Notes under the pieces: model-generated | What the model saw: only the letters and a program-made list of their open reading frames with translations | The model's database searches: none | Told to the model about the DNA's origin: nothing | Source: Moniliella sp. 'wahieum' | Taxonomy: Eukaryota | NCBI GenBank assembly: GCA_003971905.1 | Contig: RSEE01000002.1 | Location: 682,001-746,000, forward strand | Direction of reading: 5' to 3' | DNA: 64,000 nucleotides | In this document: positions 3,222 through 64,000 of the stretch, piece by piece | Position numbering within the stretch: the first letter of the stretch is position 1 | Layout: the number at the start of each line of letters is the position of its first letter | Translations under genes and position numbers: made by a program

Positions 3222-5968
3222 GAACGGGACGGGGGGGCAGGCGGCGGTCGAGGCGGATGGAGCGGAAGAGGCGATGCAAGGGAGTGCGCCAGAACGGGCA
3301 TCGACGGGGGCAGATGGCGGGGTGGAGGGGGGTGCAGAGGCAGAAACAGAGGCAGAGACAGAGGCAGTGTGGACGTGCCGCGGACGACGTGGGCGTAGAG
3401 ACGAGTGGTGGGGGTGGAGGTGCGGAGGGGAGAAGCTGGGTAGACATGGCAGCGGAAGGGGAAGGGGAAGAGCAGCCAGAGGAAGGGGAAGCTTGGTGCT
3501 GGCGCAGGTGGCTGAGCGCTGATCTGAGATGCGCACGCAGGAGGATCAGGTACAGGCGAAGCGAGTGGCGCGGCACCAGGAAAAGTGGGTGGGAGCAAGC
3601 AGAAGGAGGAGTATGCTGAACCAGAGGCTCAGGCTTGGGGCCGGGTACTGAGTATGGAGTGCCAGTGGCGAGTAGCTAGCGACTAGTGGCTAGCGGCGGG
3701 TGCGGACTAGCCCAGTGTGGCTGCAGTGTGGTCTGAGACATAAGATCCGAGACTCAGATCTGAATCTCTGGCTGAACTATTCTTAACAAGCAAGAGACCA
3801 GTGAGCGTGAGCGCAGCCACAGGCCTTGCGCTCAGCGTCTCGCAGCCGAGGCTCAGCGGCTGCACGCAGCACCAGTGCACCTAACATGCGACGCGTGATA
3901 CATGTGCAGGGAGCGATGGATGATCGATCGTCTGCAGACCGGGGACGCAGGGGAGAAGGGGCAGCGCGTAGCAAGCCCCTGCCCTGCCCAGCCCTGCCCA
4001 GCCCTGAGATGAGAAGCCCCATCTCCCCGACGGAGGCAACCTGGGGCCTGGGGCAGCTGTGCGCGTCTCGCGGTGACACATCTCGTCCCGTCTCGTCCAG
4101 GGTGCCGATCATGCGAATCGATCATGAAACATCGATCACCGATCACCGGCCCCGGCCATCCTGCATCCCTCAGGCTCAGCGCCTCACATGCTCACGCGTC
4201 ACATGCTCAGACGTCGGGCTTATTGTGCGCTAATGCACATCATCGATCATTGCGATCATTGTCTCTCGTCTCCCGCACCGCACTCCACCGTACAGCTCTC
4301 AGATCTCACAGGCCAGCAGCTGGTCTGCTCCCTCAGATCCAGGATCTCATATCTCAGTACCAGTACCTCAATATTCAATCCACGATGCTCCAAAACGGTG
4401 GCCGGTGGATCTGCGCCAAGCACTTAACTTGAGTGCCAAGTGCTGCAAAAACATTCCACATTCAAGCTGAAGGGCGCAAATGTTCCACAGTTGTGCAACC
4501 TCCGCCGCGATTGTATGGCCCTAGATCTTAGATCTTTTTGGAGGTCGAACATTAAGAACGGTCAACTGTACTACTGCTTCAACTGTATACCGTTCGGAGC
4601 CAGCGTACGTCTGAACATCGCCGGAGGCACCACAGACGCGCTGTCTCGTATAGAGGTTGGCGTGCCTATGTTAGCCCATGCCACCATGCCATCGCTTTTT
4701 ACCACTATAACTTTTGCTGTTGCATGTTTGGATTGATATTCGTATGATGCTATTTGCATCAGAGCTCAAAAACAGGAACAAAAATCCGTGCATGAGGGTT
4801 GCGTCTCTGCCTCAAGGGCGACTGAGTCTTCTATTATACTACAAACCACATTAGTACTCTTCTATTCAATCCAAGCAGAACGAGTTCAGTTCTCAACATG
4901 TTTTTTGCGACCTAAGTCGATTCGTTGTCTGTACACGGCCAAGGTGATCCTTGAATGTTGACCACCGTCTAGAGCCCATATCGGCCTTCAGTGGGCCCGA
5001 TGCACATAGTGCACCGGGGTAGTAAGCTCCGGACCTTCCACGAGCTTCCACTGCTGGTGGCCTCCAACTCAGGAGCCTATCAAGGCTCATAGTTCTAACT
5101 CTCCTTAGCTCTTGAATGTCACCGCAATCTCTCATCGCCAGCATCGCCAGCTAGGCATGTGACATTGAATTCATTCTTTGTCTCCATATTCTTTTATCCT
5201 GCTTTTTGGGTTCTTTCTTGTGGCTACCTACTATATATAGGGGCCAAATGTGCTGTTCGTAACTTGACGTTTTTCTGATTTCTGCCGTCCGCTCCCGTCG
5301 TTAGAGCCTCATCCTAAAGACGTGCCATTTTGCCTGGTTGACTATAAACATCCGCCATCCTTTTCTACAAACTGAATCTGTTTCCCAACAATCCGTAGTA
5401 TGTTATACAAAAGTAGCCTTCTTGGCATTCCGAATTCCTGTGGACCTCCGCTGGTATCGACATCGCCTTCGAAAAAAGCCCTGCCAAATACATCTCTGCA
5501 AGCGGAGCAGGTCTGCATTATTCCGCAATAGATTTCTCCAAACACAAGCCAGTCCCGTTCGACTACAGTGGTGAGATCTGAGAAGAAGAGGTTAGCGGTC
5601 AGGGGGCAACTTCCCAGATTCGCGATGCTTCATGGTACTCGTTGAGCCAGTTAGTTGGAAGAATCCTAGTTTCTGTTGTCTGCTGTGTGTGGCTCTATCG
5701 CTTGTACACAGCGTCTCAGCGCGTCAACTACAGTCTTAACAGCAAGGCTGTGTTTAGTTAGCATTTCCCTAATGCGAATGGTGGCCCCATCATGCACACC
5801 TTGCTGTGTCTCCATATCTCACCTCTGTCTACAGTCTTCTCCACAGCATCATCATCATCATGAAGGCCATGCAAATCAACAAGTTGATTGATGCTTGAGG
5901 CTGATATCAAAGCCCGCATGTAATCGTGCGCACACGATGCGCAAAAGCAAAAACATATCGACGCGAAT

Positions 5969-13506: not shown

Positions 13507-16500
13507 TTCTCTCTGTATTGCCTCCCCCGCGATAGACGGCCATGGGCTTCATTGTTCGTCTAGTATGTCCTTGCCTTCCTCCCTACATCTGTATTCATGG
13601 CTTATTGAATGATGGATGTCCGGCGTCTATAACTGATGGGGCCGTGTGTTGGAGATGTGACGATGCTAAAAGAACAGGCTCGGGGGACGCAGGTGTGATC
13701 TTTCGATGGCGCTCGATTGAAAGTGGTGCGTGGAAGTAGTAGTTCTGTGAATATTGCGTGTGGCATGCGTAAGAAAGCCCTATCGTAGTGTTCGCACAGT
13801 GTAGACTTCTTCGAATGCATGCCCACATTGGAGGTGCCGACGGGCATGGCAGGTGCGTTTGTCAGCAAACTGTCTAAGAGACGCTGGGCGTGGATTGTCT
13901 TGGCCCCGTCGGTCCACTCAGCGCGACTCATGCAGCAGACTTGGCAGCAGCACTCAGCACTCGGCTGGAGAAGCAGAGCAAAAGGTGTTCATTTCGTCGC
14001 GACAGGCAAGCCCCAGTGAGTGGGGCCTTGTGATCTCGAACTTTTGCCACTGCAAAAGGCAGTAGATGGGGAGGGACCTACTACGTATACTAACGGACGG
14101 ACGCTCGTGTGTCGGCTGTTTTGCTTGGTGAAGAGTAGGCTCAGTTGAGGCACAGATGTATTACGCACGCCGATTGATGTGTAGTATGATTACACCAAAG
14201 TTGGGGTCGAGGAGGCAAAGCAAAAGCAAACAAAATTGTACTCATTAGTATAGCCAGCAGGCGCAAAAGGCATGGCGCCACCGACCGACTCTGGGTGTAG
14301 ATCAAGGCGTTGTGAAGAGTAGGGAGTACGGGTTGTTTGCGAGGGGGACCAGCGCCAGGGGGTGGACTACGTTGCGCGTAACAGAGGGAGTGAAAGACGG
14401 TGGCTCTGTATGGCGTGGAGAGGCCAATGAGGTCTTCAAGCTGCCAGGCGAAGAGATTGTGTCGGAGTGTGAGTGAGTGGGATGATTAATGATATTGGAC
14501 AGGCTTTTGGTTGTCGGCCGTGCGCGTGATGGCGAGGGAGGGAGAGACATGCTGACTGTGATGCGTTTGGTACCTGAGCGCCTGAGCGCCCATCGCGGTT
14601 TGAGTGGGGGGTAGAGATGGGAGGAGGAACCTGATTGGTTACAAGGTCGACATGCACTATAGAGTAGCTGCAACGCACTTACTACTACTACTCTTGACAT
14701 GAAAGCTGCGGGATATGAGGAGCCGGCGCGGACATTGAGGACCAAACTCAACACACCTATGCCTGATGAGAGAGACCTAAAGTTTGAAAGGCGCAAAGGG
14801 GTGCAGCAGGAGGGTTATACTCTAATCCAAGTACAGTGCGCTCTGCTGAGCCTCAGGCATCAAAGCGCTGTGCATGTGACGCAGCATACAGAGCTCACAA
14901 TCCGTATGGTGTAGTAGTACCGCGTCATAATAACGTCGGGGGCCGGGGTCCTGCAAACACTTCTTTCAACATGCACCCACCATGCCTTGTCTATCATAGG
15001 CCGAGAGAATGAGAGAGAACCTGAGAGGCCTGAGATGTGCTGCGATTGAAGGGGTCGATGGGCAATTGTTCCGTCAAACTTCCCACAGGGATCGGGAAGC
15101 ATGGCATGTCAAACCAGCCAACTTGTCGGGCATGGGCATGGCCGGAGGAGCGGGGGGAGATGAGGAGCACAAGTGGATTGAAGCGCTTAGAGCATCAGCA
15201 TCTGAGATTTTTTTGGTATGCACAAATGTCATACCCTGAATTATGAGTACAACACAGAAGAGTCCGTCAGTTTTTGTGTGCAGGACGTCTCGAACATAGT
15301 GTGCGGATGAGAGCAGTGTTGCCGAGTACTGTTGGTGTTGAACTTCAACGTTGAGACGTTGAGTGCGCTCTGAATTCAGACACCGTCAAAAGTACCCCAG
15401 TTCGCATCCGCCGACAGCTGTACTGGCCATCGGATTCATACAAATTGCCGTGTTTGGCACATGCAACGACGTGTGGCGTCGTCTCACGCACTCTTATCGA
15501 CCCCCACGCATCACCGGTCACCATCACCCAACATCAAGTACCTAACCTCCGACGTGTGTCGTCGCGGCCCCGGCGCCCAGGACACAGAAGAGATAGTGCT
15601 CGACGATCGATGATCGATGCCTGAGGATCGATGAGATCGATTATCACGGCGACAGGGACATGACGCGTGCCGTAGTGCCGATCGACAAGCTAGCCCAGGC
15701 GCTCCCGCGTATCTGAAACGAGGTGCTGCATGCTGAGGTGGTGATGCGGTTTGAAAAGCTAGTCACATTCGAAAAAAAACAGATTGCCTGGGATAGGGAG
15801 TGCGGAGCATGGGGTATGGAGATCGAGGATGCTCTGGCAGCCTACATGAGCTACATGGCGGATGGACCACCGAGGGTCCAAGCTTCAAGCTTTACGCTTC
15901 AATCTCTTCTTCGCATGCACATACATCTCCGGGGAAAGAACTCCAACTTCGGAGTGCTCCGTGCGTCGAGTAAGAGTAGTCAATACTCAGTGTACTCAGC
16001 TGAGTAGGGAGTACTTCGAGTACTGTTGAGTGGCGGTGTATACCGAGGCCCAGTCCTATACGTAGTTGAAGAGTGCCTCTCTCTAGCAGGTTACGTAGTC
16101 CCGGCGGAGGGGGAGGTGGTCTGAGATCTTTGAGTTCTGACCGGCTGACCTCTGACCGGTCTGACCAGTGATCAATTTCTATGGCCGGCGGGTGACGAGT
16201 TCTAGCCAACCTTGAAATTTCAGAGCGCTCAAGGCGCTCAAGGCGCTCAGGTTCCGCATTGCGGCCTAGGGTCTAGTAAGGCATACGCCGTCCTACGGCC
16301 CCCTATGCTTCCGATTAGCTTCAATTGGCCAGCTCTTGAAATGCGCCAGAACAGGGCTGGTGAGTACGAGGACGGAGTTAGCCAAGGTTAGTGCTAGTCG
16401 TGGGCGCGCTCGTGGCGCTGGTGCGGAATACAGGCTGCCCCCAGCAGCCCAACCGGTAATCGGGGTAACCGGGTCCCCCCGTCTGGGCGCCCCGGCGTGG

Positions 16501-17279
16501 GGAAGTGCGGCCGCGCGCCGCGCGCATGCTGGCTGCGCACCCCCAGCATGCTGCGTGCTGCCGGGCGCTGCGAGTGCTGCCCTGCTCTGCCCCCTGCTGC
16601 GCCCACTGTGCTCCGTTAGGCCGAAGCGGGGGGATGCGGTGACGCGCGATGGGTGACATGACTCAGCCACGCACATCGACAGTGTTGCAGCGCTTGGCGC
16701 CAGGCTGTGCGCTGCTGCGGCGCGGGCGCCTCTGACGCGCTGACGGGTTGCTAGTTAGTAGTTACTTGCTGCTAGTTACTAGTTACAGTTACCAGTTGCT
16801 GGCTACGGATGGCCCAGGCTGGCCCTGCTGGCCCGTCTGTGGCTGCGGCCACTGTGATGCATCCACGTGCATCATGCACCCGCCATCACCACATCACGCA
16901 GCCTCAGGCCCTGTGCCCGCCGCTGGATGCAGGATGCTTCAGCCTCACGCGTCACTAGTCACTCCAGCAGCACACAGCAGCCCTACTCCAGCATGTATCA
17001 TGCATCCCCACTCACCTCACCGCTCACCCCAGCAGCCCAGCCGTCGTCCCTACGTCAGTACTCAGTGCCACCTGGCACCCCCCTGACCCCACCATCTCCA
17101 GCTCCGTCTCCTTCTCCTTCTCCAGCTACGCCTCCATCCATCGTCCCTGCGCCATCGCCTCCACCGTCTCCGCATCCTTTCCCCGCCAGCCCGTTGCATT
17201 TGCCTCCCTTCCCTCTCCCCCCGTCGCCACCGCATCTGCTTTCCCCGCCTCCGCGTTGCTTCCCGCGGCGGGTGCTGCC

Positions 17280-28391: not shown

Positions 28392-30036
28392 GCGGCTGGT
28401 TGACTGGGACCCATGCGGTCTGGCGTTCATGCTCGGAGCCTGTCTTGTGGTGGTGGTTACTTTGGCCTGTGACGCTAGGCGTGCTCTTTCTGTGGTGCCG
28501 TTCCCTGCATGGGGCAGGACGGAACGCGCCAACAAAACCCTATGGCATCCATGCTATTCCCTTCTTCATCTCACCATAGCTGCGTGGCAAGGACTTCTTT
28601 GCACGGAGACGATAGTAGCAGCGACAGCGTGCATTGAAACACATACCTTGTGAGGCCTACCTATGGCATGTGGGATGGAGAGAGAGTTCGCGTTCCAAGT
28701 ATTCCACCCGTGCCTGTCGAAGCTTACCAAGGACGAAACGTCGACCTGCATAACCACCTCGTTGGCAAGCCTTTCTGTACAACCTTCTACCACATGTCGC
28801 AGACAGTGCGAACATGCCAAGTCATATATCCCTGTGCCTCGCGGCCCGTCAGCGGTTGTTTCAGGGTGAAGCCAACCTCCCATCCTGATGGGCTCTCAGT
28901 TGTACCGGGCCCGCACGTATAATGCATCCGGACTGAACAAGAGCCTTGCAACGAAAGCGATGACGGTGGGACCTGTACGTGCCGCCGACGGTATCAAAAG
29001 CAGCACAGAGTCGGAGCTTACGGTGGCGGGAGGGATGGGAGGCAAGGAGGATGAGGGGAGGACGAGAGCGTCTTCATTCCGAAACGGATACCGCGACGGA
29101 TGCCGCGACGTCGTATCGGGGCGCAAGAGGGGTACGTGGGTGGGGCACAGTGTCTACGTATGCTATAGGTGGACTGGACGCTTTGAGGCTACGGATGCCA
29201 TCGATAGAAGCCCTGAGCAAAGAGAAACATATGCGCACAGAGGGATAGCTGCATGTCGGCACCAGGGATGTGAACGCATGTGAGCGATACAATTGGTGGG
29301 CCGCGCATGGGGCTTCGCCTGTCGGGCACGTGCGGGGGGGGCAAAGATGCGAAAAGGACGTCGTGGTACCACACTAGCATCATGGACCAAGACATTGGCC
29401 GACGGATGCGGGCCAGGGCCAACCTACTGTGTGAGCATCGTGCGATGGGGCGGGTACGATAGACGGTAGCAGAGATCAGAGATCAGAAAGATCCGACATA
29501 GAGATCAAAGTAGCGAAGAGGACAGGTTGGGCGCCCCTCAACGAACAGACGTCGCGTGGTACTACCCCGACACACACCTACGTAAAGAATCAGGCACTGT
29601 GAAAGTGGGAGGGGGGGGGGGACGACCCCGCCCCGAGCATGTCTATACTAGACAATTTGGTTATGGCCACTTAGCCCTGCCAGCTTGCGTACTGCGTACC
29701 TCTTCATACAAGCTATCCAACGACGAAAGCGGATGCGCGGGGGACCCTCGGCCGCCCCGCGTGGCCACGACATCGCTTGCTTACAGGATGTGAAGGGCGG
29801 TAATCGGCAAAGCCAAAGACCAGGTCAAGCCCAAGTCCCAACGGTGTCGTACACGCAGGGCCGTGCCGTGCTCGCCTTATCCTCTGCCCTCTACCCATAC
29901 CCACTAAACTTTACCCAAACCACACCTATTGGAATTCTGGCCTACCCGGACCGGCCCGGAGCGGGATAGCGGGCGACTACCTGCGCAAGGGAATCTTTAG
30001 GTGAGGGAGGGGATAGGGGTAGGCGGGGCGCGATGG

Positions 30037-30076
30037 CGTTAAGATGTACGTTAAGATGTACGTTAAGATGTACGTT
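30037..30076. repeat. 12-bp tandem repeat (AAGATGTACGTT)x3
   Basis: Three perfect copies at 30041, 30053 and 30065, followed by a GATC-rich tract. Confidence 0.9.
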
Positions 30077-30515
30077 AGATCGATGGACCGGCTGATCGTT
30101 GATCGGTTGATCAGTGATCGATCGATAGATCCATACATCGACAGGAGATATGGATCCGAGATACCGGGGTACCGTACGTGCAGCCCATCCGACGGAGGCG
30201 CCTCGCCTTGCCCCGCGACCGAGTCGGCAGCGGCAGTCGGCAGTCGGCACGTGCGTTAAGAGGGGTATACAATGTGACACAGACGGCGACGGGAAGGCCA
30301 AAGCACGTCCACGGTGGCTCGGGGGTAAGCTGACGTGGAGGAGGGGGGGGGCGAGGAAGGAGGTTGGGTCCCCAATGGGCGTATGCTTGGCGTGTCAGGG
30401 GGAGGTCCCCTTGGGCCAAGGGCAGATACATGGGATACAAGGGTGGAGGGGTGGAGGGGTGGAGGGGCGGAAGGGCGGGGGGTGTGGTAAAGCAAGGGGG
30501 GCAAGGCGGGGTTTG

Positions 30516-34309: not shown

Positions 34310-36117
34310 CGCACACTCACTCGCTCACTCACTCGGACACGGCGGTGCCGAGGCGCATGGCGCCGCGTGGCGAAGGGGCGAGGCGGGGGGAGGACGAGGG
34401 CGGGGGCGGGGCGAGGAGGGCGGGCAGACGGGCGGGCAGAGATGCGAGGCGAGGCGATGCGGACGAGGCGATGCGGACGAGGCGAGCGGACGAGGCGAGG
34501 CGGCGGCGGCGGTGGCGTGGATGGGTGGAGAAGGGAGGCGGCGGGCACTGGGACGGACCGGTGACCTGCTGCCTGCAGGGCTGCGTCCCCACGCAGCGCG
34601 CATCACCCATGGCCGCCGCTGCGACGGGTGACGCGTGCTGCTGCTTTAGATTTCCGCGGGATTCAAATTTGGAGGCGAGATGCGGCAGCCAGTGCGCCCC
34701 CGCGCTCAGCTGCGGCGCATGGAGGTGAGCGTGGCGGGCATGCGTGATGCATCAGCACTCCCTGCTCATGCATGTGCATCACTGCGGCCGAGCTGAGCGC
34801 TGCGATGCCAGCCGCTGCTCGGGGCTGGTCTTTGCGGCTGCTACGTACCCTGTGCATGTGTGTACGTACAACCGGCTGCCCCCGCGCGCCCCCCATCACT
34901 CCTCCAGCACGCTATCTCCCCTCCGCTCCTCGGCCGCTCCTCTCAGCACTCCCGCACCGCGCCAGGCCCCCTCCTTCCCCGCCCTCCTCTCCTCTCCTTC
35001 CTTCGCCCTCCTCGGCTCAGCGCTGGCGCTCCCGTTTCTCCCCGCCCCGCCCCATCCCACCCACCCACTGCCTCTCGCCCTCTTCTTGGCGCACGCGTAC
35101 CCCTCCTGGCGCCCGTCGGCGTCATGTACACTGAGCTCGTGCTCCCCACTACCCAGCCACACGAAGCGGTGACTCCCGTGTCTGTCACCGCCCGCCCGAT
35201 TGTGGTTCGATGCACCGAAGCTCGACGAGCGATGTGCTTGCCCAAACCCTGCGCGTATCCGATCCGCTAGCCGCGTCCCGCTGAACATCGAAGGCTCCCC
35301 AGAGTTCTCCTGGCTGTCCCGCTCGGCCACGCCACCCACGCTTCGCTCGGAGAATCCCCATGCAACGAACGGCGCTCCCCAACCGAGCCACGCGCCAACC
35401 ACGCAAGGGAGCTGGAATCTGGAAGCCGGGACAGCTTCGCGCAGATGCTCCCCGCGTCCCCGTACGGGGCAGCAGGCCAGTGTCGGCCGCGTACACATGG
35501 CAGAGAAACGCCTGCAGAAACACGCAGCACGCCAGGGGGGCGTTGCTGCGTGCCAGCCGAGAGGCGGCTGTCTGGCGTGGCAGCGCACCTCGCCACAGCA
35601 AGCCGGCACGCCCCTGCCCTGCCCAGCGCCTGCCCCTGCCTGCCCCTGCCTGCCCCTGCCGTGTCGGGCGTCCCGGTGCAATCAAGCCCGCACCCCCCCA
35701 CCCCCCCCCGCTGCACGGGGCCCGTGTGAGAGTGGCGCGCGCAGCCTGAGTGCTACCGCGCCCACTCCCAAGCCTCAGCGCCTCAGCGCCGCAGGCATCA
35801 ACCCTACTCGTACCCAGTCTCAGTACTCTGTACTCGGCTACGCGCCACACAGGGCGATGCGTTGACCTGCTGAGACTCCGCGCCCAGCCAGCACCAGGCC
35901 TGAGGCTAAGGTCTGGCCTTAGGGTTATTAACGTTCAACGTTAACGTTTGCTAACTACTACTACTTGGCCACCCAAACTCTCAACGTCCCAAGCTGAACA
36001 AATCATGTCCCGCAGGGTATGCCCAACGGCAAGTACCACCACGGATCATCGATCATTGATCATTAGTCATGCATCGTACATCAGTAACTGAGTCGAGTAC
36101 GTTGAGTGTACATTGAA

Positions 36118-36165
36118 CGTTGGGGCGTTGAGACGTTGGGACGTTGAGACGTTGCGACGTTGAGT
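36118..36165. repeat. 8-bp tandem repeat (CGTTGRGA)x6, degenerate
   Basis: cgttgggg cgttgaga cgttggga cgttgaga cgttgcga cgttgagt. Confidence 0.85.
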
Positions 36166-37004
36166 ACTTCGTACTGAGGTACTGAGACCCAGTACTGAGA
36201 CTGATTAATGATTAATCGATTAAACCAGTTCTGCCCACCTTGCAAACAAACCCGCGCCTCGACAGCCTCGACGCATGTGCCGGCTCCGACGTGCGACAGG
36301 CGGCTGTCCCCAACGTTGGCAGCCCCTGCTTTGGTCACATGTCACACACACTCGTGTCCCTGTTTAAATTTTCACGTTAAAAACAATCGAAAGTGACATG
36401 GACGCATGACGCGTGACGCGATTGAATATCTTGATCCTCTTGTTATCCCCACGCCATCAGCTTATACCCGTCGTACCCGTTGATGGGGCATCCACCATCC
36501 CGGGGGCATCGGACAATGATGAATGAGCGCTGAGCATCGGACCTTGAATCATACCAATTGCATATTTCTTGGCCAGCCGGCGGCGCCTGATACCTCAGGA
36601 CTCACTCAGTCCTACTGCTCAATAAGGCTCAGGGGATCTTTCCCCGCGTAGAGGGAAAATACAGCAGGGATGTTGAGGTTGAACTCAACGCCGAGCTAGT
36701 AGATTGAGGAGCCTCGTTCGGCATGTCGTAGAGCGCGCAATACTATCGAGGCAAGGAAGCATCGTTGTCCTGTCGAAATGAAATGTTGAACGTGCAGGAC
36801 AACTCATTGCGCCAGGCGGAATTGTGGAGGGATGGCTCATCGCCATCGCTCATCTAACTGGATCGATTCCCCCGTTTCTTCTGCTTTAATGGCTTTTGGC
36901 ATTTGACATCCCCCAAGCAGCAACTCCTTGTGCCTCCAAGAAAGGCGCTCCCAAAGTGTGGCAACCTCCTTCCAATCAGTTGACCCCGATCACCACAACC
37001 AAGC

Positions 37005-40879: not shown

Positions 40880-41435
40880 AATTGCTGGCCGACCTATGAA
40901 GCGCGAGTGTTGGAGGGTGGGATCGAGTGACATGGTGCGACGGCTGGTATGGTTTGGTCCCACCTGGGTTGGCATGGTTGGGCTTTGCCGAGGCACTGCC
41001 AGGGCATCGCGCACGAGCGTTAGTACCACGTCCCGAGGAAGAAATCCAGGTGACTTTAGCTCGTATCGGCACCGAGGCCACTCGCTATTCAGTTCAGCAC
41101 CTTGGTAGCTCGGCTGCATCCGCCGCGCATCAAGGTCATGGCGTAGGGGTGTCAACGTGGATTGATGACCATGCAACGTGCAACTGAGCCAAGCCTAGTT
41201 GGGCGTAAGCCTCCCCCGCTTCACGCAGATTTGTGTCAAGCTCGATGGCTTATCAATCGCATTTGCATCTACATGCCTATACTCGCTTTACAGTTGGGGC
41301 ATGGGCAGGATATGGCCAGATGATGAGGAGTATGTAGTGTCCAAAGGGAGGAGAGAGAAAGGGGGGAAACATATCCTGTAGCTGTGGGCGTAGCTAAGCG
41401 CTCACAGCTCACATGTGAGCTCACATGCCACATGC

Positions 41436-49147: not shown

Positions 49148-49420
49148 CCCACCTTTGCCCTGTTCCCCCATTTCATCTCTCGATCTCACCCTTTTACCGT
49201 TCTTGGTTAGATCTTCCCGGTTACCGGTTACCATCCAGCAGCACCACAACCCTGTCGCACCGATGCTTGCCAGTGCGTCATACATCAGCACGGAGGCTCA
49301 GCGCTGGCTGAGCTCAGCGCTCCCGGCCTGAGCCCAACAAGCCAAGCCGACCATCGTTGGCATCATCAGATCTCCTCCCATCCTCCCATCGCAGAACTCT
49401 ACCAACGTATCCGCCCTCGG

Positions 49421-49480
49421 CATCAGTACGACTCCGTACGCATCAGTACGCATCAGTACGCCTCAGTACGCCTCAGTACA
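49421..49480. repeat. 10-bp tandem repeat (CMTCAGTACG)x6
   Basis: catcagtacg actccgtacg catcagtacg catcagtacg cctcagtacg cctcagtaca. Confidence 0.9.
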
Positions 49481-52604: not shown

Positions 52605-54335
52605 TCAAGTAGAGTCAAGACTGCCACCGATCCGGCTTTGGGTACGAGTGGAAGCTGGAACGCTGTCTAGCTGGAACGCGGGGACCAAAGTGGTCAACAG
52701 GACAAATATGGCGTTTTGGATCTCGATGAGGTGCCCAAGCAAGGTGTGCAGCTGAGTGGGACTCAAGCTGTTCGGAACAGTGCTACTTGAAGGAGGCCCT
52801 GTTTTGCTCAGCCCCGAGGGGGACGAAGAATAGGACCAGGTTATGCCGAGAGACGATGGTGCACAGTGGGAAATACCAAGGAAAGGTGGATGAGCCAGTG
52901 CTTCTCCCTCTGTACAGGTAGGGGAGATGCCATTAATGAAGCGTACAGCGGCTTTGCGCAATGACGAGGCGATATTGACCTCTCGGGGCGCATTGACCGC
53001 AACAAACTGAATGTAGATATCGAGGGCTTTCTCGAAAGCTGCTGATGGTGGGCGTGTAGCTCGCCTTCGGGGTCCAGGGAGAGTGTGGTAGGAAGAGAAG
53101 GTGAAAATGGCTTAAGTCGATACCAAGGTCGGGCCAAACGCTGGCCTGCATCAGAATGCTGGGACGGTCTCGGTAGATCCGGTCCTGAGGCCAAGGCAAA
53201 AGCAGAGGTAAAGCTGTGATACTGCCGACGCAGACCATCCATGTCAAGCCAAAATGCCAGATTCTCCTCGGCATGCTGGGTGCGGAGAAAACGACGAAAG
53301 AGAGCAACCTGAGTAGGGTCATGCAAGATTTGCCTTAGCTGCTCTTGTTTGGAACCACTCCACTCCAGTAGTTCAACCTCGCTAGTCTCTGAAGCGGACG
53401 TTTCCTCGAGCGACATGGGGTAAGCGAGCATTCGACCCAATTGGGTCAATTTGTAGAAGACCCGCGCATGTCGTACAAATCGCAACCGGTCCACATCATG
53501 TGAGTCCGGTGAAGGCGAAGTCAATGAGCTCACCCACTCTTCCCGTCCTTCTGCTCCGGCATCGTCAAGACAAAGCTCTACCCATCGCCTCTCAAAAAGT
53601 AGAGGAAAACGTGGCCAGCTTCAGCAAAAGTGTTTACCGTTGAATGGTTCAACAGCCAAGCCGCTGCGTCCAAGCCGCAAAAACAATGCGTGCAGCGTAC
53701 CAACTGATCAGGGGACTGTATTTCTAGATCCTGCATATGGACGCCTTTCTGGTGCACATTCACGCGTTGTGGAAGAAGCTTGTTGTACCGTATGGAAGCA
53801 TCAGATGAAGTAGGTGCAGCACCAGCAAAGTGACGAAAAAGAGTTTCCATGAATGGGCCGGCCAAGCTGAGGCTGTCATCCCTCTCCCTACGGGGGAAGT
53901 GAAAGAGATGGATTGGGGGGCCGTGGTACTGCTGGAAAAAGCTTGTGCTCATCCCATTTGCCAACATAAACTCCTGGACGACGCAGACGCCTTTGGTGAC
54001 AGTACCAATATTCCTCGACCCTCTCGTATGTGGGCCATGGAACGCGGGTCATGGGCATGGTGGATAAGCTGGGCATCCAGCATAACCTGCAGCATCTCTA
54101 GCCCCTGCGTACGCGAAAAGTGGAACGCTTTGGTAGTCGCCACCACAACCGTTCGAGTGGGATTGCTAGTGCTCGGGCGGCGCTCTGTGTGGCAAAGCTG
54201 AAGTGAGGCCATGTTGTCCAATGCCTCGTCCGGAGTGAATGAGTTGGCGTAAGTACGGAAGTTGCGCTTGTGCTGGCGTAAATCGAGCGAAGCAATCAGG
54301 GTGGAAAATAGCTCGAACAGGCTCTGTAAGGTCAA
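52605..54335 (-). CDS. RGS protein with DEP domains (FlbA/Sst2/Rgs1 type)
   Basis: LFSTLIASLDLRQHKRNFRTYANSF, LSPKG.., ERDDSL...LFRHFAG, HCFCGLDAAAWLL and RGS box LRQILHDP...LFRRFLRTQHAEENLAFWLD. The first exon lies upstream of 54335 and was not resolved. Confidence 0.88.
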
Positions 54336-57300
54336 ACAGCAGGCACAAAAGCGTCAGCTTCACATAGCTTTCACATCATCTCCACAGGACTCTCGGAATG
54401 ATGGCCGATGATGAGAGAGATGTGCGAAGAACCACACAACATGGCGAAACAAATCAAGGGGATGTGGACCAACCGAGGCAAAGAGTGTACCGACTCCTGT
54501 GACGCAGAATCTCTTCCGACGTCACCAAGGAGACGGGAGCTAGGCTGTGAGGGGCCATTCACCTAAAAGCGCTCGGTTATGGAGAGGGGTTGATGAGAGT
54601 GGTGGAACGTGGTGAAGAGATGCGACGTGAGATGTGAGAGGTCGCAAACACAGGATGTGGGAAGGGAGACCTCGAGCGGCCTCGACGATGGAGCAAGTCG
54701 GCGAGAAGGGCCGAAGGAACTTACCAGATATACGAGCCCCACACGACTGACCACTGAATGTCTCGTCTCGTTTGTTTGGGTAGTCGCTGCGGGGGGGGGA
54801 TATCTTAGAGCGTCGCCAAGCAACCAATACATATATCACAACCCAGCTTAGAGAGCTTTTTCCTTGCTGTGGGAACAGAGGATCGGGTAAAGAGGGATCG
54901 ATCCGTACTCAGTCGGAAATAATCATGCGTGCCATGCACATCCACCCTGTCATGCTCCGAAATCAGAAAGGTATAATGGGAGCTGTCACACTGCAAGCCC
55001 TTTTGAAGGGTGGGGTTGGGGCTGATCCATCCACTGTAAAAGGAGACGAGGTAATGAGGGACGGTGGGGTGCATAGTAAAAGTGTATATACATCTAGTTG
55101 GGACCATGCGCCACATATGAGTCATGAGATGGCCCTCAGTGGACGCATCCTGCAACGTTGTCTGAGCTCGGAACTCTTCGAACTCCTTTGACCGTACCTT
55201 GCATAACTAAGGCAGACAGCCATGACACCTTTCTGAAAGGCATGCGCCCTCAGTCCAATAATCAAGGCGGAGACAGACCTGGCCAGGCTCTATCGCTAGG
55301 GTAGAAACGAGCCCCTGCTATAGCTCCTCGAACGAAGAGGAGAGAGATTATGCTGCAGCGCATCATCGATCATATCATCTTCCCTTCTCTCTCCGGCATC
55401 AGACACCACATGTTGCATCTTACTTCCCGCCCACCCTGTCCGTCCTCCAAAGCCCCCCCCCACCTCTTCCACTTTTTGTACTGAGTACTCATTGTACTCA
55501 TCCCCTCAAGTTCTCCTTCCATAGACTGAGTATAAGTTACCGCCATATTCCTCGTTTTCACTTTACACTTCCTTCACTCGTATTTCACGGCACTCTTGAA
55601 CCTCTCAGATATCCTATACCTCTCACAAATAGTACCGTCCTTCCGGAATTATCGTCCCGTCATCGAACATAATTGGAAGCGAAGCGGTCTTTTGTTGCCC
55701 ATTTTGCAGATGAAAATCTTCTGAATCCCGCCAGTGGTTTCCAAACGGATGTACCACCGCGAATACGGGACATTTGGGGACGAGAGGACGGTGGGCATAT
55801 GAAGGTGATTATGACGGATGAACGTTCTTGTATAAAACAAGTATTTTCCAGTGGCAACACTTCTTTCAATTATTGCCAGTGTCGGTGGCATAACCCGCAC
55901 CCCTTGTCATCTTCATGACAACAGGGGATAGAATGAGAATGATGGGGGCGTCGTTGGGTTTTTGGCGTCTCGTTCTCGCAATCGGCCTACTGGTCGGTAT
56001 ACCTGAGGTGCAGCTCTCATTTCCCTTTTGCATTCAACAAAAGCATAGGGGTCTTCCCGTCAACATGCACCATGCACTTTTCGGGATGCACGTTTGTGCC
56101 TCATCGACCTCATCCCCTCTCGTCTCCGTATCTACTAAGGCGCGATCCACCTTCTCATCTCTGCTCCATCAAACTCCTGTGGCCCTCGGTAGTGATACTA
56201 ATATTGCAAAAATACGCTTTTGCTTATCCTCCACTGCATTTCCTATTTTTTTCCGCAGCCACAGTTCATTGAGAATGTAGGTGCCCAGCTTGGAGGGCAC
56301 AAGGCATGCTTGAGGATCGAAGGCTTCTCGTCTACCCTTTACTTTTATGGGCCGACACAGCGTCCACGTTCTCCCTATCGATATGGCAGGTTGCGCGCCT
56401 TCCCCTTTCCGGATCATTATGGAACCGTGAACTCGGGTTACACTATACCGTCTCTGGTTTTGCCATGATATATCTTCGGCATCGTTTTTTCTCAACTGCC
56501 GACTGCAGGCTATACGGGCTACGTTATCGATATTTCTGTCGTGATAGTACGGCTACGTCATCTTGGCCTCTGTTTTCATTCGACCCCCGATGTTCGAGCA
56601 ACACTTCATCATCTCTCTTCTGCTCTCGTAGATCGTATAGCTCGCATATCATGCATCACTAGTCACTATGCCCTAGTCACTCTAGTCACTTGCCACTAGT
56701 CACGATACAGTCACCACTTCGTGAACAAAATACGATATTGTCTCTACATTTTCACGTGCTGTTCTCTGCGCTGAAACAATCTTCCTCAGGCCTACATACC
56801 GTTTGTAAAAGACCAGGACCCGACTGACATTTACGCTGGAAAACCGCTTCTGTGTGTTGACGGTTGATGTTGAATGGTTGAAAGCGTTGAAGCTTTTCAA
56901 ATTGTACGGTTCGTATCCTCCGTCTGCGTATTCACATTCATGGGCTGAGGCTAGTCCAACCTTCAAGGCAACCGTGGACAAGGCAAGCGCCAGAAGCAGG
57001 AAGGGAACAGGAAGAGAGAGAACAGGAAGCTCACCTGTGCAGGGTGGGAACAGTCAGAGATAGCTTCTTGTAAGCTACTGACGCTAGTTCAACCTTCAAG
57101 CTTCAACCTTCAATGCAACAGGGAGAAGAGGAAGGAGGGAAACGAGGACGCGACGGTAACCAATCCGGGGAGCGGGTTGAGTCGCGGAACTCTATAGCCA
57201 GTTCCGCTTGCCAGCGACATGGCCGATCAAGCCATCACATGCGTCACACCAATTGGTGCCACATGCCACCACACTCCAACATCCTCGGCTGGCGCTCAGA

Positions 57301-57499
57301 TCTCAGACGTCGCCCTTTTACGAAGCCACCCCCACCTCTATACTCTTCACAAGTGTCACCAATGTAATGTCACAACTTTCAGATCCCTTCCAGCATCCCA
57401 TATGCGACTCCCAACCGAAAGCTGAGGCCTCAAGCTAGGTCTCAAGGAGGCTGCGTGGCGGGACCCATCGCTGCACTTTGGGCCAGCGTGAGTACACGG

Positions 57500-60010
57500 A
57501 GAGTACGAGAGAGTATACCTCGTACAAAACGCGATAAACGCGTAACGCGTAACGCGTAGGCGTAAAGGTGGGTATAGTAACGTTTAGAACCCCACCACAT
57601 GCACGCACCGCGTGGCGCGTGAGCTTTGCTGCCGCGATTATATGATACAGGGGACGCCCTCGGTCCAACGTAAATGCTTCGTCAAAATAGAGAAAATGGG
57701 GCGCTGTGATCTGTGTGATCGACTTGATCCTGCAAAACACTATTGGTGCATCGATAATCGATAACCGATAACGATAATCGATAAAATTTAAACCTGATCT
57801 ACCTCTGAGATCTGGATCTGATCAATCTCCAAAACCTACCCAGCTCCAAAGCTAAAACGGACATATGTTGGCGCTGGCCAGCTTCTAGCGCTAAGCTAAG
57901 GCAGGCTAAAAGGTTTAGTTGCCATGGCCTGCGATGGCGCAACGGATTCGGATTTGCTAGGTCTCCCTTCCTTCAAGCTTTTCTAGCTTCCTTCAAGTAT
58001 TAATGCTTCAGGCTTCAGGCTGAGTGAAGCTAGTGAAGCTTCAGATCAGGCCTGAGCCTCAGGACTCAGGAGCCTGAAGATTTTGGACTGATCCGGGGCT
58101 CAGCCTGAGCGCCCTGAGCGCCCTGAGAGCCCTCAGGCTGAGGGCCTGTGGCCCGAGGCCTGTGCATGTGAGTTCTGAAGAGGGCTTGAAACGTATCAAG
58201 CATCCAATGCTTCACCGTGAACGCGTGACGCGTGAAGCTTGAAGCTTGAAGCTTGAAGCTTCTGGGATCTGAAGCTCTGAAGCTTGAAGCCTGAAAACGA
58301 TATATAGAACAGCAGTCTTTGATGGCCTGGGTCTGGACGGCTCAGTCGCAATAGTCACTCACTAGTCAGCGCTGAACGTTTGTGGCCTGTGCGCGTTGTT
58401 AAACGTCAAGGGCTGAGCAAGGGTTGGGTGGGGCAAGGCTGGGCAAGGCAGAGAAGGCGGGGCAAGCGCTTAGGCTAAGCGCTAAGCTTAGCGCTAATAC
58501 CCCACCGGCGAGGCTTGATCAGCCGGCCGGTGCATTGTCTCGGTGGGTCTGAGAAGATGATGATCGTTCAACGTGTGCAATTAAAGACCCATGTAGTTGA
58601 GCGCCATTTGCCATCCTTCACATGTCACAGGGGGCTCTGGCGTTCTGGCGCGTTGTGGCGCTCAGCCTCTGCGCCTTGGCGCTCAGGTTATCCGGCTAGT
58701 TATCGATTATCGGGTACCGGTTTAGCTTTAAGGCCGGGAGGGTGTGGACGTGTTTAGCCCAAGGTGCTAGTATACGTATCAAGTTGAAGCTTGAAGCATC
58801 AAGCATCATGCATGAAGCATCAAGCATCAAGCTTCAAGCTTCAAGCTTCAAGCGCTTCAAGCGTCCTTCACGCATCATGCATTGCAAATCCAGGAGCGGG
58901 AAAGAGCGGCACGTGTGCGAAATATAGGAGAGGGGTGGCCTGCTGTGCATGTGACCGGTGACTGGTGACTGACCAAGCGCTTTTTACAGGTGCTTGGTTC
59001 CGGCCAAGCCGCACCGACAGCCACACCCATCGGATCCTGACTATTAGTTAACGACTCTGATTAGCTAATGGCATGTGATTAATATTTAATAGTTAAAATT
59101 GATTAATGATCGATGATCGGTGACCGATGATCGATGACTGTCGCATGTCGCATGCCATATATCATGCATCATGTGCATCATGCATCATGTCGATTTGATA
59201 CATGCCGTACATCTTCATGTCACTCATGTCACGATGTCACTCGAGCGAGGCCTGAGGCCTGAGGCCTGAGGAGGGGTACGCGAGACTCAGTACTTGGTCG
59301 TACTTCTCCTTACTTGCCCTGTTCGGGATATAAGTCGTACTACGGATACGGGTTCTCGGGCTCAACCGTGAGGCTGAGCCTCAGCGCCAGCGCTCATCCT
59401 GGGCATAGGGGTGAGGCTCACCGCACCAGCGCTTAGCTCTTAGATTTACAGGGGTGGTGGTCTGGTCGACATCCCCGTCTCAGATCCATGCTTGTGCTCA
59501 GTACTCGTACTCGTGTCGCCGAGCAAGTGACAGCAGTACCCACAGCGCCCAGGCGCACGATCTAGAGCAAGCCAGAGAGAGGGCTAGGCCAGGCTGGGCC
59601 AGGCTGGGCCCCAGCGATTCCCCGAGTCCCGCACCCGCCAACATGGGCGGCGTGTACCACGTACCCACAGTCTACGTACCCTGGCCGTGCACGCCTGCCC
59701 CACGAGCACCCTGGCCTGCTCGATCACATTTCACGACCAGCATCGATCACCTGTCTCACACATGCCACATAGCAGCCGCCATGCAGTACTGCGTAATGCT
59801 TCCGGGCATGTCCTCCGCGACGCTGGCCAGCACCCAGGGGGCTTGGCGCGAAGAGGAGCCCAGGCGCCGCGTCGAACGCCGATGCGCTCGCTGCATCGGT
59901 CGGTGCCGCCGTTGGCAACTGTGGGACCGTAGCGCCAACCTGTTACCGGTTACCAGCGGTTACGCGCGCTCAGCCTTGCGCTCAAGCGCTCAAGCTTCAA
60001 GCTTCTAGCT
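57500..60010. repeat. Largest cluster of 7-bp-period palindromic microrepeats (A-N4-T-N)n
   Basis: Examples: ACGCGT-A x3 (57538), ACGCGT-G x2 then AAGCTT x4 (58221-58261), ACTAGT-C-AGCGCT-G-AACGTT (58361), AGGCCT-G x3 (59248). Confidence 0.9.
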
Positions 60011-60645
60011 CCCAGCCTGCTCCAGCCCGAGGCTCAAGTCCCCAGCCAGGCTTGGACTTCGGCGTTAAGCTTGGGGTCGGACCGGGATCAGTACCAGTGC
60101 CGCCTCTCCGGCTGTTGGGTGAGCGTGGCTCGTGTGCTTCGCGCTGACCATCCTCTTCTTAATCATTGCCTTCCAGCCTACCTCACGCCTCACCTGTCTG
60201 TGCAGCTATCCTTGCCACCACCACCACCCCTCTCGCCCTCCAGAGCACCTCTCCTGTCTCTCCGCCAGTGGCACACTCCCTCGCCACAATGCTGTCCACC
60301 ATCACCAACGCCCTCCAGCAGCCCCTCTTCCTCTGGCTCCTATGCTGCTGCCCCTGCCATCACCGCCCCTCACGGGCTTGTCCGCTGCCGTTGACTTCAT
60401 GCTCCCACCTCGCTCTGCGCCTCCCCCAATGAGCAGCTCAGCCCCCACCGCCTTCTGCCAGCACCAACACCAACAGCTTTTTTGACTTGGCTCCATTGGA
60501 TCTGCCCAGCTACCCCCCCTTGCAATCCTCGGCCAATGCTACCCCCCTCTGACCCACCTCCGCCCACATTGCCGGCCCCAACAGGCCCCACTACCACCGC
60601 ATCCCCTCCACTTCCCAGACCCAGACCCAGACCCACACCACCACT

Positions 60646-62001
60646 ATGTTTGGCACCCTCTCCCCAACGGACCCGGGATCTACTGGCTGCGAACCCGCTC
60701 CTGCCCTAAAGCACAGCGAGCCCGATTCGTTAGGTACGCCTCCCGATCCTGCTGTTGTTGCTGCTTTGGCCCCACGTACGGCCGAGTACAACAACCTCTC
60801 CGCCCCTCAACCGTCCTCTACTACCGCGCCCGCCTCCGCCCTTCGGACCCATCCGGAGCCGGTGTCGATGACAACAATCTGGGCGAGCTGGGTGGAGCAG
60901 AGGGGGACCGCAAGACACGATTTGTGTTCAAGCTGCATCGGATGGTCGAAGATCCTGAATGCCAAGATACCATTGCCTGGAGCCCGACAGGAAACAGTGT
61001 GATCATCTCGGATGTGGACGCATTTTGTGCCAGCGTGTTGGGCAAACACTTTAAGCACAACAATTTCAGTTCCTTTATCCGTCAACTCAATATGTTCGTC
61101 TCTGTCTCCAACTAATTCCCTTTTGTTTGAGAATGCAGTACTGACTTGGGGCTTCTCTCCAGGTATGGATTCTACAAGGTCAACAAAACCCACCGTGCTG
61201 CGCGGGCGTCTGGTCAGCCGCAGGCATGGGAGTTTAGCCATGCCTCCTTCGCCGCCGCGGACGGATTTGCTCGAAACGATTCGCCGACGGACGTTGGACA
61301 CGGAGAGTGTGCGGTACGAGGCGACGCGGGACCTGCAAAACGACATCAGCATTTCCTATGCTTATGTGCAATCCCAATTGTCGAACGTGTCGGATGCATT
61401 GATGACGAGCAAGGCGGAGAATGCGGCGCTGTGGTCCTTTGCTTTGCAACTACACTCTACCCTCTCCCAAGTGGTGGACTGTACCAATTTGACCAATGTG
61501 GTTCATGTGCCGCCCCTGCCTGCTCATCGCGCCTCCTCGACCTTTGACACACGCGCCTCGGTCTCTGAACCACCACCAATCTTTGCGCATGCCCTCCCAC
61601 CTTTGACCCCGAGCTCTCAGCCCCAGCTGCACCCCACAATGGCCACTCATCAACGTCCCGTCACGGCTCCAAGCAGTCGCAGAGCATGCCTCATGAGACC
61701 AATATGCTCTTCAGCGCCGCCCCTCGGCGTGTCTGTGCAACAAGCGCCCACATGGGCCTATCGTGCCTCCTCAATTGACAAAGAAAGCATGCTGGCCTCG
61801 CAACCGCAACAGTTCTCTTTCCAATCGTCTGTGCGATCGCGACCCTTTGGCTCGATGCAGCCGCCTTCACACACCAACCTCTACGCTAACATGCAACTCC
61901 CCGGGGCACCAGCTGCAGTGGAGCAAGAGCGTCCGTTGAAACGAAAGGCGGCTGAGGCGGATCTCGTTCCCAACTTGGGTTTCGATCTTCTTGAAGAGTA
62001 G
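60646..62001 (+). CDS. HSF-type DNA-binding domain transcription factor
   Basis: FVFKLHRMVED...IAWSPTGNS...VLGKHFKHNNFSSFIRQLNM|YGFYKV...WEFSH, followed by a coiled coil (VQSQLSNVSDAL...ENAALW). Intron 61094-61162; the start could lie further upstream. Confidence 0.92.
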
Positions 62002-63199
62002 GAACCCCTTCCCCCCCCCCCGCCCCCCCCTTCCCCTCGCCCATCCCCTTCACGCCCCAAGCTCATTTCACACCCCGCTTTCTTTCGAATGTACAACAGC
62101 CCCCCCATAGCTCAGTTCTTCCATTGATGGTGATCCCCTACGTTGTCTGGAGGGGCCATTTTTCTAAGCCCAAGCCATTCTTTCCTACCCCTTGTCTCTC
62201 CCCTTCAACGGGGCGGAGGGAAAGGTGGAAGGCAGACCCGCATACCCTCTTGCGCCCTTGGCAGGTGCACGGCGTACAGCGCCGTATATGCCATCCATCT
62301 CGTCCCTCACCCCTATTGCTGCTCCTCTGCCTATTTGATGCGCGAGTCCCTTGCACCTTGCCCTGTGCAAAAACCGATTTCGATGGATGTTAGTCTGTTC
62401 TCTGTATCATGTATCAATGCAGCCTTTCGTCCTGACCTTTGTACGGATGGCTCCCTCCATAGTGAGGAGGTCGTCCTGTTCCGCGCCGATCAGGGTCGAT
62501 GGCTACGTCGTGGCGCATGACCTACATTACCATCCCTGTTTTCTCTGGCTACGGCGGGGGAGGGCATACTCCCTGGCAGCCGAGTGTCGTCCTTGCGTGG
62601 GATGAACTTGATGCGCGTCTCCGTCGGCCTACGTTTCCGACTGAAGGTGCCGGCTTGCTGTGCCCCCCTCTGAAGAATGGGTTACCTGGGACCGGCAAGT
62701 AGTCTCTGCCCTCGGTGCTGTCGCCATAGCATCCTTTTATCGATTATCGATCAGATCCTTCTGTTGGTGGTCGCAAGACACAGCGAACACTATGAATACG
62801 CCTGTGCCAGCTTCCCACACTTTTCATGTTGGGGTTGTAGTCTCTGTTGTATACTTTTGTTGCTCCTATAGCCTTTTGGCCAAACCCACTCGATGCAGTC
62901 AAACTCGACCGAGGTGCGCAGCAAAACCGCCGTGTGAGCGCCAAGTAGTGTTTTCTTTGATGGAGTACAGAGAGCAAGCAGACAATGGGCATCAAGTAAC
63001 GTATCGGAGTCCTGTACTCTTATTAGTAGAAGCGGCTGATGCAGATGGGGGCGAAGACACCTTCAATCGATTGTCGATGAATGATGCATGATGGTTGTCG
63101 ATGATCGATGACGTTGCATTACACACGTTACACGCTGGAAGCTGAATTGATACACGTAACGTAACGCATTAAACGTTAAACGTTAACGTCAATCCAGCG

Positions 63200-64000
63200 T
63201 TACCGGTTACCAGTTACCAATGGCGCCCTATGCTCCGGCGCCATCACTACGCACTTGGGCAGACGCACTGACATGCAGGTCACACTAGGATACCAAGAAA
63301 GCTTTGGGTCAGCATCAAGACGAGAGAGAGAGCACACACCAGAATTGAACAAACGTACCATCCCTCGAGTTTTTCAAAATCTCCAATGTCGGCAGTGTGC
63401 ACGGTCAGACCACGAGACTCCCACTTTCTTGGTTTCAGGCGCATCAGCCGACATAACCACCTCGTTGGGACCCACACCACACGACGACCGCCACACCATG
63501 CTCCTCGGGAACAGGAACGTAGTCGAGGCCCGCCTCGCGGAACACCTTCTTGGCCTCCTCATCAACGATCGGGTCAAACCCAATAATGGTGCCGTCGGGC
63601 AAAGCTGTCACAGCACTCTTGAGATGCAATGCCTTGGTGATGGGGACAGCGATGACGCGGTAGCCGCGAGGCTCGAGGAGCGCTTTCAGTCCATCCCGCC
63701 CAGCTTGGTTCGTCCGCGCCGATACACCGACAAAGACAAGCTTGCGGTCCTCTAGCTTAGGATGTCGCCTCCATCCAAAGTAGCCGGTGGGGAAAGGCGT
63801 TCGAAGGCCAAGCCAAACTGGTTTGTTATGCTTGGCCAGCAGCCGAGGAGCCAGCCACCTCGGGTTGGCGTGGGGACAGAGCCGGGACTGCACTGCATCA
63901 ACAAGCCCTTGTCCTTGCCAGCGAGGGCATGGAAAAGAAAACGAGCTGATCTTCAATGAACACGCCATCGGGAGCGTCGGTTGGAGGACATACTCCAGCT
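63200..64000 (-). CDS. Dimethylarginine dimethylaminohydrolase (DDAH, amidinotransferase fold), 5' part outside the window
   Basis: PDGVFIED, TLDGGDIL, VGVSARTN.AG, LHLKSAVTALPDG and DIGDFEKLEG|CVTCMSVRL after splicing intron 63285-63358. Catalytic Asp/His/Cys motifs are present; exact stop uncertain. Confidence 0.88.

Follow-up and report, generated by a model that had tools for sequence, protein, structure and literature searches.

A 64-kb window of fungal nuclear DNA (~58% G+C; contig RSEE01000002.1 of Moniliella sp. 'wahieum', positions 682,001 to 746,000) carries non-coding tracts that follow a single rule, in which palindromic hexamers beginning with A and ending with T succeed one another every 7 bp, separated by one spacer base (A-N4-T-N). 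The pattern is real and strongly non-random. An earlier sequence-only reading had proposed that period and symmetry, not sequence, are conserved, and this holds: 15 of the 16 possible inner palindromes are used, roughly evenly, the commonest in 13 of 84 units. The tracts are best filed as repeats generated by template switching and slippage, rather than as a gene, an RNA, or a mobile element. We tentatively read them as a neutral mutational product of 7-bp duplication and strand-switch copying, a reading to which we assign a probability of about 0.4. The rule is apparently undescribed, as no account of an A-N4-T-N heptamer rule was found in the open-access literature searched.

Significance was computed from dinucleotide-preserving shuffles, with 200 for the whole window, 500 for the region 57500-60010 (window coordinates throughout), and 100 for an independent tool. 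Across the window, 307 A..T palindromic hexamers were present against 167.1±13.6 in the shuffles, and 29 pairs of them stood at lag 7 against 0.41±0.63, with a maximum of 3 in any of the 200 shuffles. Pairs also peaked at lag 14 (15) and lag 21 (12), and the remaining lags within 1-24 gave 0-5 each. The control classes showed little at lag 7 (C..G, 4 against 1.78 in shuffles; G..C, 1 against 1.89; T..A, 0 against 0.49), so the lag-7 peak and A..T bias expected from the sequence-only reading are both present. The C..G and G..C hexamers were depleted window-wide, at 273 and 289 compared with 333 and 342 in shuffles. Twelve kinds of hexamer occur among the 29 lag-7 pairs and heterologous palindromes are joined in 10 of them, in agreement with the earlier view that this is not one microsatellite family. 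Using the independent tool, TNA-N4-TNA-N4-TNA was found 47 times, against 4.94±2.14 and at most 10 in 100 shuffles.

The signal is strongest upstream of the HSF gene, in the region 57500-60010. This region holds 63 A..T hexamers (9.0±2.9 in 500 shuffles, maximum 20), 19 lag-7 pairs (0.06 in shuffles), and 33 units of the form TNA, 4-bp palindrome, TNA (0.44 in shuffles). All six tracts quoted in the sequence-only reading are located where it placed them, and its count of at least 11 of 16 inner palindromes is exceeded, since 16 of 16 kinds of A..T hexamer occur in the region and 11 kinds enter lag-7 pairs. It overlooked the rest of the window, where 244 hexamers (157 in shuffles), 10 lag-7 pairs (0.53), and 51 TNA-flanked units (6.45) were counted. 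Its statement that the grammar "fills" the region was too strong, as A..T hexamers cover 14.9% of 57500-60010 (2.4% elsewhere in the window) and perfect period-7 arrays 11.8% (0.7% elsewhere). The enrichment outside the region is concentrated at ~3.5-4.7, 15.3-17.0, 35.7-36.9, 49.0-49.8, and 62.4-63.3 kb.

The elementary unit is TNA-(4-bp palindrome)-TNA, with 84 copies in the window; shifted to the other frame, it reads as an A..T palindromic hexamer with a single spacer base behind it. This assignment follows from the flanks, because the hexamer excess comes almost wholly from hexamers that have a T two positions before them or an A two positions after them, and hexamers with neither of these flanks number 121, against ~105 estimated from base frequencies. 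The converse arrangement, with TNA between two 4-bp palindromes, occurs 27 times, of which 19 have both the A and the T flanks, 7 have one, and only 1 has neither, which makes it secondary to the TNA-flanked unit. The spacer base N is mostly C or G, although any base is possible. Within a unit, the two N agree in 64 of 84 cases; in another 15 they are complementary, and in the last 5 they differ in some other way, so that 15 of 20 non-identical spacers are complementary. For the 51 isolated units (11 expected by chance), the corresponding numbers are 37, 13, and 1. Ten pairs of adjoining hexamers are perfect yet differ in sequence, and 7 of them retain the spacer. The spacers are not oriented toward one or the other flanking gene, and the phase at which arrays end is variable.

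Palindromic symmetry is a property of period 7 only. Perfect period-7 arrays of at least two copies consist of a palindromic hexamer plus one base in 25 of 45 cases, compared with a random fraction of 0.110. Of these symmetric arrays, 22 of 25 are of the A..T type, and all 20 non-symmetric arrays are within one broken pair of symmetry. The excess is absent at periods 5, 6, 8, and 10-12, and at period 9 only 1 of 11 arrays is symmetric. Both dyad axes are in excess: odd palindromes centred on TNA number 262 against 178 with 3-base arms and 40 against 11.6 with 5-base arms, and no such excess is seen around ANT, CNG, or GNC centres. With arms of at least 6 bases, odd palindromes are in excess (44 against 19.9±4.3) and even ones are not (20 against 18.4±4.4). 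For the longer arrays, the predicted DNA structures are hairpins with TNA triloops and a single mismatch in each unit (z -4.9 to -6.5), whereas the predicted folding of short arrays is indistinguishable from that of shuffles. Within the same zones, arrays of period 8-10 also consist of TNA and a 4-bp palindrome, with 1-3 extra bases.

The tracts are intergenic. All 29 lag-7 A..T pairs fall outside coding segments, defined here as those with Pfam support rather than by a formal split of coding and intergenic sequence. The region 57500-60010 sits inside a gap of ~5 kb, bounded by an RGS/DEP-domain gene (minus strand) and the HSF gene (plus strand), an arrangement in which the gap probably serves as a divergent promoter. 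This gene map is rough, as a self-trained codon-usage mask singled out the ribosomal-protein genes and few besides. The stretch 54500-60500 gave no Rfam match at E<=0.1, no tRNA was detected in the window by tRNA models, and none of the 98 open reading frames (ORFs) scanned in the 64-kb window has a Pfam transposase domain.

The pattern is also lineage-specific. Control loci were metagenome contigs (L001-L121) seeded by three AAGCTT-S units, which gave at least 121 loci; among the contigs with three or more such units are some of 0.7-1.8 Mb, and their G+C spans 0.30-0.66. Results from these loci apply to the matches listed, where most loci contained the seed array only, with no other sign of the grammar. 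After L060 was dropped for overlapping L059, 186 non-seed period-7 arrays remained in 638 kb, of which 15 (8%) were a palindrome plus one base and 8 were A..T. In the 46 loci of at least 4 kb, TNA-flanked units with inner palindromes other than AGCT numbered 104 against 138 expected, compared with 72 against 7.3 expected in our window. Given no enrichment in these 46 loci, the grammar is not a general property of DNA. The 8 A..T arrays came from six contigs (L047, L079, L011, L087, L090, and L118; G+C 0.42-0.54), with AAGCTT-C-AAGCTT-T-ATCGAT-T-ATCGAT in L047 as an example, and five more period-7 arrays in this subset were T-S-A plus a non-palindromic 4-mer. A Pfam scan of long ORFs of L079 and L047 returned one kinase only. 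The rule recurs, more weakly, in other eukaryote-like genomes, a label that is based for these contigs on ORF structure.

The mechanism we favour would begin with a 7-bp tandem duplication or slippage, yielding arrays of 2-4 copies with identical spacers. During replication or repair, the growing strand would then switch to the opposite strand, as in quasipalindrome template switching; an array shares 6/7 identity with its reverse complement, and each unit offers two dyad axes, which makes such a switch possible. Copying across the centre of a hexamer would create a perfect palindrome from any half-site, and copying across the spacer would create mirrored variants with the spacer flipped to its complement. 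Because of the odd spacer, the array would never turn into a single long perfect palindrome and would therefore be tolerated, and the products would build up in long, probably divergent, promoter-type intergenic DNA. Since the inner sequence is arbitrary yet strictly palindromic, recognition by a protein offers no explanation for it, and the DNA must have served as its own template.

The observed split between identical, complementary, and otherwise different spacers fits duplication combined with spacer inversion. Imperfect units are present (~15 in 13 chains), alongside the 10 pairs of perfect but different neighbours; these neighbours and the one pair of mirror images about a spacer, ATCGGT-G-ACCGAT at 59116-59128, fit symmetrisation rather than independent point decay. 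The variable phase of array ends is as expected for slippage and decay. In yeast, template switching is reported to homogenise the arms of inverted repeats and to invert their spacers, in promoters and highly transcribed DNA among other places (PMC8604942, PMC13100816, PMC3820800). A local palindrome-generating process, which was among the options raised by the sequence-only reading, is therefore also our best reading.

Several points weigh against duplication and strand switching. The evidence is 64 kb of one assembly, and the duplications and switches are inferred. The T-N-A junction is not predicted, as A-N-T, C-N-G, and G-N-C junctions should work equally well but give 0, 1, and 4 pairs; neither this junction nor the exact period of 7 is accounted for by the mechanism. 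An intrastrand hairpin cannot form from only 6 bp of palindrome, and the switching would thus have to be interstrand and act on very short homology. Hairpin stability was rejected as a driver, since G+C-rich inner palindromes are not preferred among the 84 units. Most arrays have 2.0-2.6 copies, with many different units side by side, a patchwork that resembles many independent creation events more than classical microsatellite slippage. Finally, in 34 of the 51 isolated units the 7-bp period continues on one side for exactly two more bases, with the right-hand extensions, by our reading, giving way to unrelated sequence in 13 of 18 cases. This suggests a discrete event of the form TNAxy + y'x' + TNAxy rather than decay.

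The few-copy patchwork, the two-base extensions, and an excess of abcde-e'd'-abcde 12-mers all suggest discrete events, and for this reason we retain, as the main rival, an unlikely alternative in which a symmetric break directed by T-N-A is followed by hairpin-capped or fold-back repair. In such a "palindrome writer," a domesticated transposase or other nuclease might, with the same low likelihood, cut next to T on both strands; repair would add two palindromic nucleotides and re-copy the site, writing TNAxy + y'x' + TNAxy. The enzyme could alternatively be topoisomerase-like, cleaving beside T on both strands. It would be specific to this fungal clade, with T-N-A-directed symmetric nicking or hairpin formation repeatedly breaking promoter DNA and repair leaving A-N4-T-N heptamers of arbitrary inner sequence, which we also regard as unlikely. 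T-N-A is indeed the only fixed sequence and is identical on both strands, and the inner palindrome is exactly 4 bp and arbitrary, as two flank bases plus their complement would be. The extra "xy" on one side of the isolated units, the TNA and 4-bp palindrome of the period 8-10 arrays, and the packing of many independent short events into promoter-type DNA agree with this scheme as well. The 12-mers make up 15 of 93 period-7 runs of length 5 (16 if one run fitting both forms is included), where ~5.8 are expected, and 8 of them start with TSA. Palindromic copies of flanking bases are the known signature of hairpin-forming hAT excision (PMC4561436). The scheme has no candidate enzyme, however, and transposase domains are lacking among the scanned ORFs. 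The mirror product, with palindromic bases taken from the TN side, occurs 0 times among the length-5 runs, although both products are expected of a symmetric process; the extension is absent in 17 of 51 isolated units, and the complementary spacers (15 of 84) need an additional step.

The remaining explanations fare less well. The sequence-only reading also raised footprints of TNA-targeting transposons, here taken as excision products of TNA-duplicating PIF/Harbinger-like elements that leave two bases per inverted end. Formally, TNA, a 4-bp palindrome, and TNA make a complete Tc1-type footprint with TNA in place of TA, PIF/Harbinger-like elements favour promoter regions, and the spacer is mostly identical within a unit and often kept across different hexamers. 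We nevertheless consider this origin very unlikely, as the even use of 15 of 16 inner palindromes would call for ~15 families, each with its own terminal dinucleotide, 15 of 84 units have complementary spacers, and the duplication has no fixed phase. Among 1876 terminal inverted-repeat pairs, 29 had 3-bp direct flanks (29.3 expected) and 0 were flanked by TNA, and transposase domains are lacking in the window as stated above. Moreover, mPing/PIF excises precisely, via overhangs derived from its target duplication, or otherwise leaves both duplications without a 4-nt insert (PMC4561436). Selection is a further possibility, and one that we hold to be quite unlikely: the arrays would be sequence-independent structural elements of divergent promoters, acting as cruciform- or hairpin-prone DNA, by nucleosome exclusion, or as docking sites of a dimeric or structure-specific protein. 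On the rough gene map, the four main zones do lie in long, probably divergent 5'-5' gaps; three 7-bp units make two helical turns by simple arithmetic, stable hairpins are predicted for the longer arrays, and the rule recurs in a few unrelated-looking eukaryote-like contigs. The units decay freely, though, the arrays are short and heterogeneous, and their spacers lack polarity toward the flanking genes, and protein recognition would not yield an arbitrary but palindromic interior. The tight divergent promoter of RPL5 and RPL15 contains no arrays, and heat-shock elements (GAANNTTCNNGAA, <=1 mismatch) are not enriched, with 8 in the window against 9.99±3.49 expected, one of them at 58255, inside the region. 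The pattern is hardly credible as chance, as ordinary microsatellites, or as an artefact of assembly. (AAGCTT-S)3 alone is common, as the number of seeded metagenome loci indicates, but every statistic exceeds every shuffle, one rule is common to at least 12 different units and to six separate zones as well as the independent contigs named above, and the control loci show no enrichment.

Other specific models were also rejected. One of them, in which a 4-bp palindromic target is duplicated and T-S-A is the remnant, conflicts with the near absence (1 of 27) of 4-bp palindrome pairs around TNA that have neither an A nor a T flank. Duplication of a 7-bp palindromic target does not suit the varying array phases, and junctions between heterologous units do not form odd palindromes. 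The absence of the mirror product speaks against a symmetric 5-bp duplication to which palindromic bases were added. The hAT footprint consensus is nTnnnnAn; such footprints would give T..A hexamers, of which there are 0 pairs at lag 7. Stop-codon modules oriented toward genes were dismissed because the spacer has no polarity.

Several known systems resemble the tracts in part. Quasipalindrome template switching likewise produces short palindromes, or makes them perfect, whatever their sequence, and turns the spacer into its complement. Its known cases are, in contrast, individual imperfect inverted repeats with loops rather than a lattice of period 7, and no T-N-A requirement is described for them. 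The excision footprints of Tc1/mariner and hAT elements share with the tracts a short target direct repeat around a tiny palindrome near genes, but here the inner palindrome is unrestricted, spacers are sometimes complementary, the phase is variable, and there is no parent element. Bacterial intergenic heptamer repeats (Xanthomonas GGGAATC and cyanobacterial STRR; PMC4692102) also have period 7, an intergenic location, and hairpin capacity. Their inverted-array pairs resemble the pair at 58222-58262 and 58814-58854 here. Those repeats are prokaryotic and consist of G-rich, non-palindromic units, one per family, whose symmetry arises from two opposed arrays and which follow no A..T or TNA rule; in our window, the unit is self-complementary and lies beside fungal genes. 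Ordinary micro- and minisatellites are also short, non-coding tandem arrays that decay by point mutation. The tracts differ from them in having at least 12 unrelated units under one symmetry rule, different perfect palindromes in register, and only 2-4 copies. DNA polymerases in vitro extend self-complementary short repeats through hairpin elongation or ab initio synthesis, by fold-back and slippage. That process differs in its high temperature, long homogeneous arrays, even-length units, and lack of a TNA rule.

Table 1. Positions of the tracts and of the genes flanking the main gap, in window coordinates
Position	Strand	Feature	Remarks
4522..4536		AGATCT-T x2 array	intergenic
15605..16961		ATCGAT-G, AAGCTT-C, ACTAGT-T, ACGCGT-C-ACTAGT	zone upstream of RhoGAP gene
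35928..36420		AACGTT-C, ATCGAT-C chain, ATTAAT-G, ACGCGT-G	intergenic zone
36113-36164		period-8 array TTGAGACG	TNA + 4-bp palindrome + extra bases
49209..49232		ACCGGT-T array	
49420-49479		period-10 array GCATCAGTAC	TNA + 4-bp palindrome + extra bases
52608..54353	-	RGS/DEP-domain gene	RGS E 7.5e-08; DEP E 3.3e-05 (below Pfam cut-off); left flank of gap
56649..56703		ATGCAT-C-ACTAGT, then decayed ACTAGT-C array	RGS-HSF gap
57538..57558		ACGCGT-A x3 array	
57750..57790		A-spacer chain: ATCGAT, ATCGAT, ACCGAT, unit with 1-nt deletion, ATCGAT, AAATTT	
58000..58145		second lattice, odd palindromes CTNAG-S-CTN'AG	TNA centres 6 nt apart; DNA fold z = -4.6
58104-58133		CCTGAGCGC x3.3, period 9	within the lattice at 58000..58145
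58221..58262		ACGCGT-G x2, then AAGCTT-G x4	G spacer unchanged across palindrome switch
58361..58381		ACTAGT-C-AGCGCT-G-AACGTT	three different palindromes in 7-bp register
58464..58497		nested AGCGCT/AAGCTT palindromes	19-bp odd + 18-bp even
58784..58854		nine-unit chain AAGCTT, AAGCAT, ATGCAT	mixed G and C spacers
59079..59137		eight-unit chain AATATT, AATAGT, AAAATT, ATTAAT, ATCGAT, ATCGGT, ACCGAT, ATCGAT	
59157..59189		ATATAT-C-ATGCAT + ATGCAT-C array	
59247..59271		AGGCCT-G x3.6 array	
59985..60005		AGCGCT-C-AAGCTT-C-AAGCTT	
60486..61115	+	HSF-type DNA-binding domain exon ORF	PF00447, E 3.3e-19; right flank of gap
62737..63219		ATCGAT-T, ATCGAT-G, AACGTT-A, ACCGGT-T	zone downstream of HSF gene

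Some tracts in Table 1 have further features. The array at 58221..58262 has a predicted DNA fold with z = -5.7 and TGA triloops. Its G-spacer stretch 58222-58262 and the C-spacer stretch 58814-58854 form a 41-nt inverted repeat that is 88% complementary, with 551 bp of unique sequence between the arms and no evident target duplication. The CTNAG-S-CTN'AG lattice also clusters at 59360-59420, and examples include 17-bp and 19-bp odd palindromes. The zone of the AGATCT-T array contains isolated TNA-palindrome-TNA units at 3515-4370. Elsewhere in the window, overlapping 16-bp perfect palindromes (AGCTCACATGTGAGCT and CATGTGAGCTCACATG) lie at 41395-41427, beside period-7 repeats GCTCACA and CACATGC, and an intergenic, perfect 12-bp tandem (CGTTAAGATGTA x3.4) at 30037-30077 adjoins imperfect 7-8-bp arrays.

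The window encodes Pfam domains of Med5, RGS, RhoGAP, RPL5, RPL15, TAF10, COX6B, Cornichon, and the HSF DNA-binding domain. By protein identity, the host resembles Exobasidiomycetes (Ustilaginomycotina) without a close annotated relative: RPL5 is 82% identical to the protein of Tilletiaria and 80% to those of Tilletiopsis and Meira, and no named relative of the homocysteine synthase exon exceeded 66% identity. A centromere-like AT trough was ruled out, as G+C in the window dips only to 0.50-0.55. RPL5 (minus strand) and RPL15 (plus strand) are divergent at 26349-28650, and their spacer of ~250 bp has no A..T palindromic hexamer, unlike the long gaps. At 7079-10099, one of two domains in adjoining ORFs is of the dethiobiotin-synthetase type (AAA_26) and the other is a class-III aminotransferase domain, which we take to be consistent with the fused biotin-pathway gene of fungi and plants. 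For the 447-aa ORF at 31648-32988, no longer homologous protein was found among 8000 candidates scored.

The tracts would show that, in a eukaryotic genome, much of the DNA near promoters can arise from a rule (period 7, dyad symmetry, and T-N-A) and not from a sequence; here the rule covers 12-20% of a 2.5-kb gap. They would also provide a clean, countable signature of short template-switch and duplication mutagenesis in vivo. The specificity for T-N-A and for period 7 points to a sequence-specific step, which may be an enzyme or a preference of DNA structure. Because restriction-type palindromes and potential hairpins are dense beside genes, they could affect promoter evolution, DNA fragility, and the assembly or alignment of such genomes. 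Were the tracts instead written by T-N-A-directed breakage and repair, they would represent a new, readable mutational signature and a de novo source of promoter DNA, whose products might be co-opted as a sequence-independent structural element. Even as merely neutral debris, they would caution against taking such arrays for regulatory motifs.

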